Assembly (NCBI GenBank): GCA_030651035.1
Contig: JAUSCK010000277.1
Location: forward strand, 7,711 to 71,710
DNA length: 64,000 nucleotides
Reading direction: 5' to 3'
Source: Elusimicrobiota bacterium
GTDB taxonomy: Bacteria; Elusimicrobiota; Elusimicrobia; Elusimicrobiales; UBA9959
Both the position numbers and the translations under genes were made by a program. Every line of letters starts with the position of its first letter. Position 1 is the stretch's first letter. A model generated the notes under the pieces. The model searched no databases. It was not told where the DNA came from and saw nothing but the letters and a program-made list of their open reading frames with translations. Positions 27,601 through 30,600 of the stretch are shown one piece after another.

Positions 27601-30600
27601 GTTCCAAGCCGAGGCCGGCAGGGCCCAATCCGTGCTATAGGAAAGGGAATTCATTCCGGTCACGGCGTCTGTCCAGTCCACCAGCAGCGTGCCGGTCTGG
27701 GCCGGGCCGGAAGTAACCCGGACCTGGGCCTTGTCCAGCAGCGAGCCGCCCAGGTCGTCGAAATTGACGTTATAGAGCCCGGTGTTCGCCGTCAGATAAT
27801 GGGTGGCGTCGGCCTGCAGGCCGGTTATCGTCGGGGTGGCCAGGTCGACAAGAAAGGTATAGGTAGAGGCGAAGGCGGAGAAATTCCCGGCATGGTCTTT
27901 GGCCCGTAGCTTCCAATAATACGGGTTCTGCGCCAGTCCCGGAACGTACGCCTGCGAAACAACGGGGCTTGAGCTCGCCGTTATAGTCGTAAAATCGGAA
28001 GAGGTGGCCAGTATTAATTCGTAATTTGAAGTTCCGGACTGTAAGCCGTTCGAATCGGCCCAGTCGAACATTACCCCCGCGTAATTCAAGCCGGCATTAT
28101 CGACTGGGCTTAGAAGGACCGGAACTGAGGGCGGTGACGTGTCTTTTCTGACATAAAAGACATCCTTTACATTGCTTACATTTGCGGGAGAAGATGAATC
28201 ATAAACCCTGACTGAAATATAATTAACACCCTCTCTCATGCCGTTAAAGAAGCTCTCCGGCAGGGGCCAATCATCGGCATAAGGGCTGCTCCCCAGATTT
28301 GTCCGGACCGTAGTCCAGTTTATGAGCAGATCCCCCAATCTGCCAAGTTCTGAATAAGCTGCCGCCTCGAACCAATCAAGAGCGAAGCCGGAGCTTGTCG
28401 TGAAATCCACATTGTAATAAGTTCCGGATGAATTTCTCCAAATATCGTCGCCGGCTTGATTGTCAACCAGGTTAGGAGCGGCTGAAGATGACCTGAAAAT
28501 TTTAAAAACATCGGTTGAAACTATAATATTCCCGGCCGTATCATAGCCTCTTAGCGAAACATAATTTGTGGCGGGATCTTTTAACAGGGCGTTAAAATCC
28601 ACTCCCCAATTCTGCATATAATAAGTCGCGCCGACATTTAAAGCGAAATTTGACCACTCTTTCACAAGAGTTCCGGAAAAAGCGGAACCTGAAGAAATAC
28701 TGTATTGCAAATAACTTAACTGTGAGCCGCCCTCATCGAAGATATCCACGTTAAAAACACCTCCCGGGTCATTTTCATAAGCGCCATAGCCGCCCGGCGG
28801 AGTGCTTATCGCTATGTAAGGAGCAATTGTGTCTTTTAAAACATAAAAAACGTCGCTGACCTGGGAAAGATTGCCGCCCGTGTCGTAAGCCCTTACCGAG
28901 ACATAGCCGGTGACTCCGCTGGTCAGGTCGGCAAAAGCCACCTGCCAGTCGGCCGCATAGGAAGAGAGTTCCTGGGCGGTAAAAATATCGGCCCAGTCCT
29001 TTATCACCGTCCCTCCCTGGCCCGTCACGGAAGTTATCCGGTACTGCGCAGTCGCCAGTTTGGAGTTGAGGTCCTGGAAGTCCACATTATAAACCGTCCC
29101 GGCGGCGTTACGCCAGGTACCGTCGCCGGCCTGGCTGTCGGTGATGACCGGAGCGGCATTGTCCTTCTTGACGTAAAAGACGTCGGCGGAAGTCGCCGTG
29201 GAAGCCAGGGCGTCGTAGGCCTCCACCGAGATGTAATTGGTCCCCTGCTCCAGCAGCGCGAAATCGACCGCCCAGTTATCGGCAAAGAGCGGCCCGGTCA
29301 CCGAAGGGATGGCTGTAAGCGCTATCTTCTGCGTCCCGGTCCTGCCCGGGCCCGTCCAAGCCTCGTATTTGGCGCCGGAAAGCCCGGCCCCGGGGTCGGC
29401 GAAATCCACGTTGTAGACCGTGCCGCCGAACCTGCGCCAGCTATCGTCCCCACCCTGCCCGTCGGTTACCGTCGGGGCCGAGGTGTCCTTTTTCACGTAG
29501 AAGACGTCCGTCAGCGCGGAGGAGGAACCGGCATAGTCGAAGACGCGCACGCTGACATAGTTGGTGCCGGACTGCAGCAGGTCGAAGAGGCCGGCGGCCA
29601 GCGACCAGGGATCGGAATAGGAGGAGGCGTCGATATTCGTCAGGTTGTCCGTCCAGTCCGTCACCAGGGTCCCGGTCTGGGAGGGTCCGGTCGTTATCTT
29701 CACCTGGACTTTCTGCAGCAGCGAGCCCCCGGCGTCGGCGAAATCCACGTCGTAGACGGCGGAGCCCGTCTTGCGCCAGGCGGAGTCGCCGGACTGCAGG
29801 TCGGTCGCGGAGGGCGCCTGGGTGTCTTTTTTGACGTAGAACACGTCGGACTGGGCCTGGCTGTTGCCGGCATAGTCCGTAACCCTCACAGAAATGTAAG
29901 ATAACCCTGCCGGCAGGCCGTTCCAGGCCGCCTGCGGCAGCGCCCATGGCCCCGGGTAGGAGGCCGCGCCAATGCCGGCGGCCAGCGCAGTCCAGTCCAG
30001 CACCAGAGTGCCGCCCTGGCCGGCGCCGGTGGTGATCTTGTACTCGGCGCTGTTCAGCAGAGAGCCGCCCGCGTCGCCGAAGGCCACTCCGTAAAGCGTC
30101 CCGGAAGAACTGCGCCAGGCGTCGTCGCCGCCCTGGCTGTCGGTTATATAGGGCAGAGAGACGTCCTTCTGGGCGTAGAACACGTCGTCGAATACCGCGG
30201 TGCTGCCGGCCACGTCCCAGGCCCGCACCGAGATATAGTTCGTGGTCTGTCCTTCGGCCAGGGCCGAGAAATCCACCGCCCAGTCCGTGTCGTAATTGGA
30301 CGAATTAATGGGCGAGCCGTTTATGTAGGTCCAATCCTTCCTGAGCGTCCCCGTCCTGCCCGGCGCGGACCAGACTGAATACTGGGCGTGGTCGAGCAGC
30401 ACGGGGTCGGTGAAGCCCACGTTGTAGACTGTGCCGGGCTCGTTGCGCCAGATATCGTCCCCGCTCTGGCCGTCGGCCAGGCGCGGGGCGGTGGTGTCCT
30501 TCCTGACTATAAAGGCGTCGGTGATGGTGGAGGTGTTGCCGGCCACGTCGTAGACCTCCACCGACAGATAGTTCAGTACCTCGTCGGCCAGCGCGTCGAA

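Follow-up and report, generated by a model that had tools for sequence, protein, structure and literature searches.

Genes pieced together from segments of different origin are familiar in bacteria. penA of Neisseria is a mosaic gene that arose by interspecies recombination, the blocks of classic pbp mosaics are roughly 20% diverged, and the lig genes of Leptospira are themselves mosaic, encoding surface proteins built from tandem immunoglobulin (Ig)-like repeats. As Lawrence and Ochman reportedly described, GC and codon-usage islands of horizontally acquired DNA ameliorate over time. In Streptococcus pneumoniae, pbp2x, pbp2b and pbp1a are mosaic genes produced by interspecies homologous recombination (PMC6861860, PMC8321556). 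Here we analyzed a 64,000-nucleotide stretch of an Elusimicrobiota bacterium (contig JAUSCK010000277.1, positions 7,711 to 71,710; hereafter the window), in which a giant open reading frame (ORF) of tandem protein modules contains a low-GC island of about 1 kb. We consider it probable, at roughly 75%, that in this island an allele from a lower-GC relative has taken the place of three resident modules by homologous replacement.

The locus resembles the pbp mosaics in having an in-frame block of about a kilobase with sharply higher divergence, whose nearest relative differs from that of its flanks. It differs from them in that the block is ~45% diverged in DNA and ~18 points of G+C apart, and in that the host is uncultured and the event is read from its sequence. 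As in compositional islands, G+C at third codon positions (GC3) and codon choice depart from those of the host and are taken as the footprint of a donor, but this tract lies inside one ORF and appears to replace orthologous sequence, with no mobility genes, flanking repeats or change in length. SiiE, a giant BIg adhesin, and the Leptospira lig products share with the giant protein a long beta-sandwich array in an extracellular setting and module-sized segments that differ in history; here, however, described families are matched only weakly, under the Pfam cut-offs, the adhesion role is putative, and the exchange would have run between lineages of very different GC rather than among one gene's repeats. 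The mosaic-gene pattern is already known, and the locus reveals no new kind of system.

The island lies within the following gene.

6691..34857, minus strand: giant ORF of 9,388 codons (9,388 amino acids), without an internal stop.

Its product starts with a signal-like hydrophobic segment and continues into an array of ~50 tandem Ig-like modules of ~109-115 (~112) residues each, delimited with a profile made from repeats of this same protein and following the pattern QAGDDxWR ... YNVDF ... NYVSVRxYD.AGN ... DVFYVxKDT. Several FN3/Ig-like inserts of ~100 residues and two Trp-rich inserts of ~430 residues interrupt this array, and at the C-terminus (window 6694-9657) a PQQ/BamB-like beta-propeller comes after two lamin-tail domains (PF00932, 96.7 bits). 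Homologs are labelled Elusimicrobia, Elusimicrobiota or Elusimicrobiales by their sources, and the predicted protein is probably a surface fibre or adhesin.

Composition breaks sharply within this gene. An earlier, sequence-only reading of the window had drawn attention to a low-GC stretch at 27950-28870, and its hand counts were reproduced exactly (38.3% G+C for 28501-28560, 41.7% for 28621-28680 and 65.0% for 29401-29460). The interval as a whole has 46.4% G+C, compared with 64.2% for the giant ORF outside it and 61.8% for the window overall. Mean GC3 of the giant ORF is ~0.83 (298-codon windows: mean 0.829, standard deviation 0.028), and values for the 22 remaining ORFs range from 0.64 to 0.82. 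A two-change-point maximum-likelihood fit on third-position GC across the giant ORF delimited the core of the island, with a log-likelihood gain of ~99 units and a GC3 of 0.825 outside the core.

27958..28851, minus strand: low-GC3 core of the island, codons 2003-2300, GC3 0.456, G+C 45.9%.

The dip that the sequence-only reading had noticed from hand counts was recovered by a scan of GC3 as a single island (z = -13.5), unique in the ORF and in the window; every other 298-codon window of the giant ORF lies at or above GC3 0.73. First and second codon positions are also reduced in GC (0.43-0.47 in the island versus 0.51-0.59). Synonymous codon choice differs between the island and the rest of the gene: AGA encodes five of eight arginines (62%) as opposed to 1% of 287, TTA and TTG together 41% of leucines versus 4%, TCA 37% of serines versus 2%, AAA 83% of lysines versus 24%, and GAT 74% of aspartates versus 20%. 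Because the differences between AGA and CGC, and between TTA and CTG, each need more than one substitution, they point to foreign codon usage and not to plain third-position decay. The codon choice of the island resembles that of module genes from two low-GC relatives, L002 (GC3 0.43) and L006 (GC3 0.31).

A module map bore out the earlier claim that the low-GC stretch spans about three modules with reading frame and module boundaries kept.

28486..28830, minus strand: Ig-like module, amino acids 2010-2124, without the QxGDDxWR motif, GC3 0.39-0.40, starting ...ISTPPGGYGAYENDPGG.
28141..28485, minus strand: Ig-like module, amino acids 2125-2239, with NQAGDDIWR, GC3 0.48.
27844..28140, minus strand: FN3/Ig-like module, amino acids 2240-2338 (~99 residues), GC3 0.61.

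An AlphaFold2 model of residues 2003-2345 is all-beta, with three beta-sandwich domains and a mean predicted local distance difference test score of 85.8, and its top Foldseek matches in the PDB are the SiiE adhesin (2yn3, E = 3e-9) and the FN3 tandems of contactin and titin; the island modules are accordingly modeled with a beta-sandwich (Ig/FN3) fold. Pfam scores of island modules stay below cut-off (Ig_Rha78A_N, 25.0 bits against 27.4; Big_3_3, 19.8 bits against 27), and the two Ig-like modules of the island are the least similar to the protein's other modules (mean identity 0.33 and 0.36; best 0.41 and 0.44). The FN3-like module scores 14.1 bits in Pfam. It has at least five paralogous copies elsewhere in the giant protein, one of which (amino acids ~718-795) reaches 38.3 bits for PF25788, above the cut-off.

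Four collinear orthologous loci were compared with the window.

L012: NCBI GCA_016207645.1, contig JACQPH010000082.1, an Elusimicrobia metagenome-assembled genome; covers amino acids 1921-3074, 74% amino acid identity overall.
L001: ENA ERZ1292638, a 1.6-kb contig at 1.6x coverage; covers amino acids 2136-2606, 66% amino acid identity.
L009: JGI Ga0209417_1002182; from amino acid 1758, ~49-50% amino acid identity.
L005: JAVHRY010000138.1; from amino acid 1874, ~49-50% amino acid identity.

For L009 and L005, this ~49-50% identity compares with 37-40% when paralogous modules are aligned out of register. When the loci are aligned together, the motif-less module of the window (ISTPPGGYGAYENDPGGVFNVDIFDEGGS) pairs with STPAGGFGPYSTNPGAIFNVDFFDGGGS of L009 and with equivalents in L005 and L012, so that a motif-less module (STPxGGxGxY...) sits at the same position in all three, at 51-57% protein identity and with GC3 of 0.76-0.85. 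The second island module, recognizable by its unusual FK[IV]FR[ST]S junction, was found in all four loci; its ortholog in L001 is 63% identical in protein with GC3 0.74, that in L012 51% identical with GC3 0.90, and L009 and L005 carry it as well. Overall, GC3 of the first two modules in the orthologous loci is 0.68-0.90, and in L012 it runs at 0.85-0.92 across the block, equal to its flanks and with no dip. Since the same modules reside at the same positions in the orthologs, they are ancestral residents of this position rather than new acquisitions.

These comparisons divide the proposal of the sequence-only reading, that a module cassette had been recombined in from a lower-GC relative. Recombination itself is favored by the sharp block of divergence from L012, by the passage from L012 to L001 as the nearest relative within it (both described below) and by the low-GC codon usage. 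The idea of an acquired cassette of new or atypical modules does not stand, as the orthologs L012, L009 and L005 carry these modules in place; new acquisition of atypical modules was ruled out on the same grounds, the same module types occupying the same positions in those three loci. Neither extra DNA in the island relative to collinear L012, L009 and L005 nor a length change was found. The island is not an inserted genomic island or mobile cassette: there are no mobility genes or flanking repeats.

One slot differs between the loci in module type. At the FN3-like position (window 27844-28140), an FN3/Ig-like module is shared by L001, L012 and the window, and L009 and L005 carry an ordinary Ig-like module of similar length. 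The difference marks an earlier event in which one module type took the place of another.

Divergence from L012 delimits a block slightly longer than the GC dip (codons ~1988-2337/2355, window ~27800-28896), and its edges define the outer limits of the tract and the two junction zones.

27793..28896, minus strand: putatively replaced tract, outer limits, codons 1988-2355, with both junction zones included.
28828..28896, minus strand: 5' (gene-sense) junction zone, codons 1988-2010; codons ending in A or T set in within the conserved module-end motif SDVFYVLKDT.
27793..27849, minus strand: 3' junction zone, codons 2337-2355, in the LVDLATPTIT linker, where L001-like sequence gives way to L012-like sequence.

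DNA identity between window and L012 is 0.81 in module m1900, falls to 0.55-0.57 in the three island modules, returns to 0.88 in m2339 and is 0.83-0.92 from m2675 to m2901. With blastn, positions 1-269 and 1081-3455 of L012 align, and the gap between them is exactly the island. Four-fold degenerate sites behave likewise, with identities of 0.30-0.44 in the island compared with 0.85 in the adjacent module downstream and 0.60 in that upstream. Segmentation of the alignment by the Bayesian information criterion gave optimal segments at codons 1921-1987 (0.86), 1988-2337 (0.56), 2338-2509 (0.87), 2510-2681 (0.68) and 2682-3074 (0.87).

Within the block, the nearest relative changes. The FN3-like module is 81% identical in protein and 76% in DNA to that of L001, versus 55% and 57% to that of L012, and over codons ~2216-2355 sliding identity is 0.67-0.81 for window and L001 compared with 0.49-0.66 for window and L012. 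Past codon ~2355 the window turns L012-like, at 0.87-0.92 versus ~0.6 for L001. Informative sites supporting L012 and L001 number 31 and 91, respectively, in codons 2231-2345, and 199 and 62 in codons 2346-2606 (Fisher p = 4e-21), and MaxChi places the breakpoint at codon 2355. This incongruence applies to the 3' two-thirds of the tract, since the first island module is missing from L001. Across the first two island modules, L001, L012 and the window are about equidistant (0.51-0.63, versus 0.40-0.51 to outgroups), which places the branching of the source lineage deep in the clade.

The junctions fall at or near module borders. At the 5' switch, the codon alignment reads GAC GTT TTT TAT GTT TTA AAA in the window and GAC GTC TTC TTC GTC CTC AAG in L012; the 3' switch, again from the codon-level alignment, lies in the LVDLATPTIT...ADATHY linker that joins the FN3-like module to the Ig-like module after it. 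Switches placed inside the SDVFYVLKDT motif and the LVDLATPTIT linker imply that whole folding units were exchanged.

Homologous replacement rests on five strands, namely the composition break, the foreign codon usage, the divergent block, the switch of nearest relative and the orthology of the modules. Under it, ~1.0-1.1 kb (window ~27800-28900) encoding three consecutive beta-sandwich modules would have given way, with the frame kept, to the corresponding orthologous segment from a related lineage of Elusimicrobia, and the genome of that lineage would have roughly 45% G+C given that the tract has 46% G+C and a GC3 of 0.4-0.5. DNA of this relative, or of an intermediate strain already patched, would have entered the cell and integrated by recombination, with crossovers at or near the module-end motif DVFYVxKDT and in the linker after the FN3-like module, leaving the protein intact. 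Such recombination would have needed matching flanks or short conserved anchors. As GC3 still stands at 0.39-0.48 in a background of 0.83, the import would be recent relative to amelioration. Its likely consequence is sequence diversification of surface-exposed modules.

Several points weigh against this account. No donor with a near-identical segment, nor any sequence nearer than L001 or L012, was found with the island protein among 5.8 billion clustered proteins, with a wider 772-residue query, by exhaustive HMMER against 1.84 billion representatives, in GTDB genomes or in JGI metagenomes, and for the first two island modules the closest matches are only 52-67% identical. The tract is ~45% diverged from the native-type allele, so that RecA-type recombination would need closely matching flanks. 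GC3 is uneven inside the tract (0.39, 0.48, 0.61), for which the donor may itself have been mosaic or more than one event may have taken place. L001, on which the switch of nearest relative depends, is a 1.6x contig with three in-frame stops that starts with 174 unmatched nucleotides and leaves the first island module uncovered. Finally, the tract and both of its junctions are known from the assembled contig alone.

Module by module, the nearest matches reach 57% for the first (L012), 63-67% for the second (L001) and 81% for the FN3-like module (L001/P0002). Giant genes of relatives that contain these modules have module GC3 values from 0.21 to 0.86, a range that makes it plausible that donors of suitable composition exist. 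L002 was rejected as the donor, its modules being 42-48% identical to those of the window, which is paralog level.

L002 and L001 have compositional peculiarities of their own. L002 (an ENA ERZ4902887 contig of 2,004 nucleotides) has four modules at 42% G+C between flanks of 56-74% G+C, and the protein predicted from it closes with a tail that is not a module. L001 has 72% G+C in its first 200 nucleotides, and nucleotides 1-174, likewise at 72%, do not match the giant gene. L002 and this start of L001 are either further mosaics or chimeric low-coverage contigs (1.5-1.6x).

The alternative that survives best, though we regard it as unlikely, is an assembly chimera, in which reads of co-occurring high-GC and lower-GC Elusimicrobia were joined by two crossovers at homologous positions. 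The contig evidently comes from a metagenome assembly, giant genes rich in repeats are difficult to assemble, and other short, low-coverage module contigs are compositionally heterogeneous, as L002 and the start of L001 illustrate. Protein collections yielded no independent assembly of the island region. The sole independent contig of the same organism that was found, Logan contig L011 (SRR13727527, 4.2 kb), was retrieved through a neighboring radical-SAM protein; it is 100% identical to window 33124-37281 and ends 4.3 kb short of the island. A chimera, however, would require two crossovers 1 kb apart, each with a k-mer shared between genomes that are ~55% identical here, and the nearest proxy for the donor, L001, has no exact match of at least 20 nucleotides with window 25601-29200. 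No stretch of the junction sequences longer than 14 nucleotides recurs exactly elsewhere in the window, which also rules out an intragenomic mis-join mediated by repeats. Module order and frame are perfectly preserved, and a second block of divergence that shows no GC anomaly fits real, recurrent recombination. The chimera has no positive support.

26815..27330, minus strand: second, milder block of divergence from L012, codons 2510-2681, 68% DNA identity versus 87% in the flanks.

This second block has near-normal GC3, and amino acid identity in its module m2564 is 0.61; it shows the gene to be mosaic in more than a single place. Together with the uneven synonymous divergence along the gene, it suggests that such exchanges recur in the giant gene.

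Much less probable is the converse polarity, in which L012 is the recombinant and the window retains the older allele. Island modules of the window and L012 are equidistant from the outgroups L009 and L005 (0.51/0.50; 0.40/0.40), and protein distances alone therefore do not polarize the event. Composition does speak to it: the L012 block matches its own flanks in GC3 (0.85-0.92), the window block is the outlier in its own gene and contig, and the GC dip of the window would stay unexplained were L012 the recombinant.

The sequence-only reading had also offered, as an alternative, that the segment is under different constraints. That view finds no support: the high-GC orthologs encode the same modules with no dip and so speak against composition being constrained locally. 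We found no credible ORF overlapping the island on either strand apart from the giant gene, and no Rfam match in it at E <= 0.1. Three sigma-70-like promoter hits (0.9 +/- 0.9 expected) are uninformative because the sequence is AT-rich, and a hidden feature behind the AT-richness was ruled out on these three counts. The least probable account of all is an in-situ shift, in which a native segment became AT-rich by drift or selection (for example because it holds an internal regulatory element or a translational pause region, or because GC-biased conversion with its sister modules was lost): the two Ig-like modules, being least similar to the others, could escape intragenic gene conversion, and the second-module ortholog of L005 has that locus's lowest GC3 (0.68), but drift does not make L001 displace L012 as nearest relative inside the block, the same modules stand at GC3 0.74-0.90 in L012, L001 and L009, and the AGA, TTA and TCA usage needs multi-step synonymous change.

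Replacement by an allele from a lower-GC relative, the reading we prefer, would amount to intragenic exchange in an uncultured phylum, in which a three-module piece of a 28-kb gene has the base composition and codon usage of another genome and the architecture of the protein is unchanged. The evolution of these giant repeat proteins would then be mosaic, in pieces the size of modules. The island also offers genome-resolved metagenomics a concrete locus at which reads can separate strain-level recombination from mis-assembly. A preprint on giant genes (10.1101/2023.11.21.568195) names Elusimicrobia as a data source only and does not discuss recombination, and a literature search on the accessions concerned, or on Leptospira lig mosaics, found nothing.

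A bolder extension, which we hold to be doubtful, is that the DVFYVxKDT..P motif and the linker serve as recurrent crossover points at which Elusimicrobia lineages exchange whole beta-sandwich modules as cassettes. If so, exchange would span ~20 points of G+C and ~45% divergence, far beyond the usual limit of homologous recombination, and module swapping across the population would be a system by which the giant surface protein diversifies. Its traces would then include the second divergent block, the unevenness of synonymous divergence along the gene and the older Ig-to-FN3 replacement (window, L001, L012).

Elsewhere in the giant gene, a tandem array with a period of 327 nucleotides occupies window 30491-32112 (4-5 copies, 80-84% matches). 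Three of its modules (amino acids 1019-1345) are 92-93% identical in protein, compared with ~40-45% for typical other module pairs, a pattern that indicates recent duplication or concerted evolution within the giant gene.

The two Trp-rich inserts lie at window 21898-23160 and 10648-11910 (amino acids ~3900-4320 and ~7650-8070) and are mutually paralogous. They share recurring WNG..W, SDP and RIG motifs and end in ...FD(F)ALDRHD and ...ADFDRHD. A Pfam search of residues 3781-4320 (540 amino acids) gave weak fn3-type matches only, in FN3-like sequence upstream of the first insert, and the inserts may be beta-propeller-like.

Downstream of the giant ORF and on the same strand, window 1791-6642 encodes a 1,070-residue PQQ-type beta-propeller protein with a Por_Secre_tail (type IX secretion system) domain, and a second protein with a weak, sub-threshold PorV match (22.7 bits, cut-off 27) that is matched better by UPF0164. 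The last 988 residues of the giant protein yielded no sorting domain for type IX secretion, although the next gene has one. These features lend limited support to a predicted type IX secretion and surface context for the locus.

A further region of lower G+C lies outside the giant gene, at window 37000-39400 (G+C 0.51-0.58, GC3 0.64-0.67). It contains a helix-turn-helix plus nucleotidyltransferase gene (37753-38376) and an ABC-like ATPase gene (38486-39355), which could be a separately acquired accessory pair.

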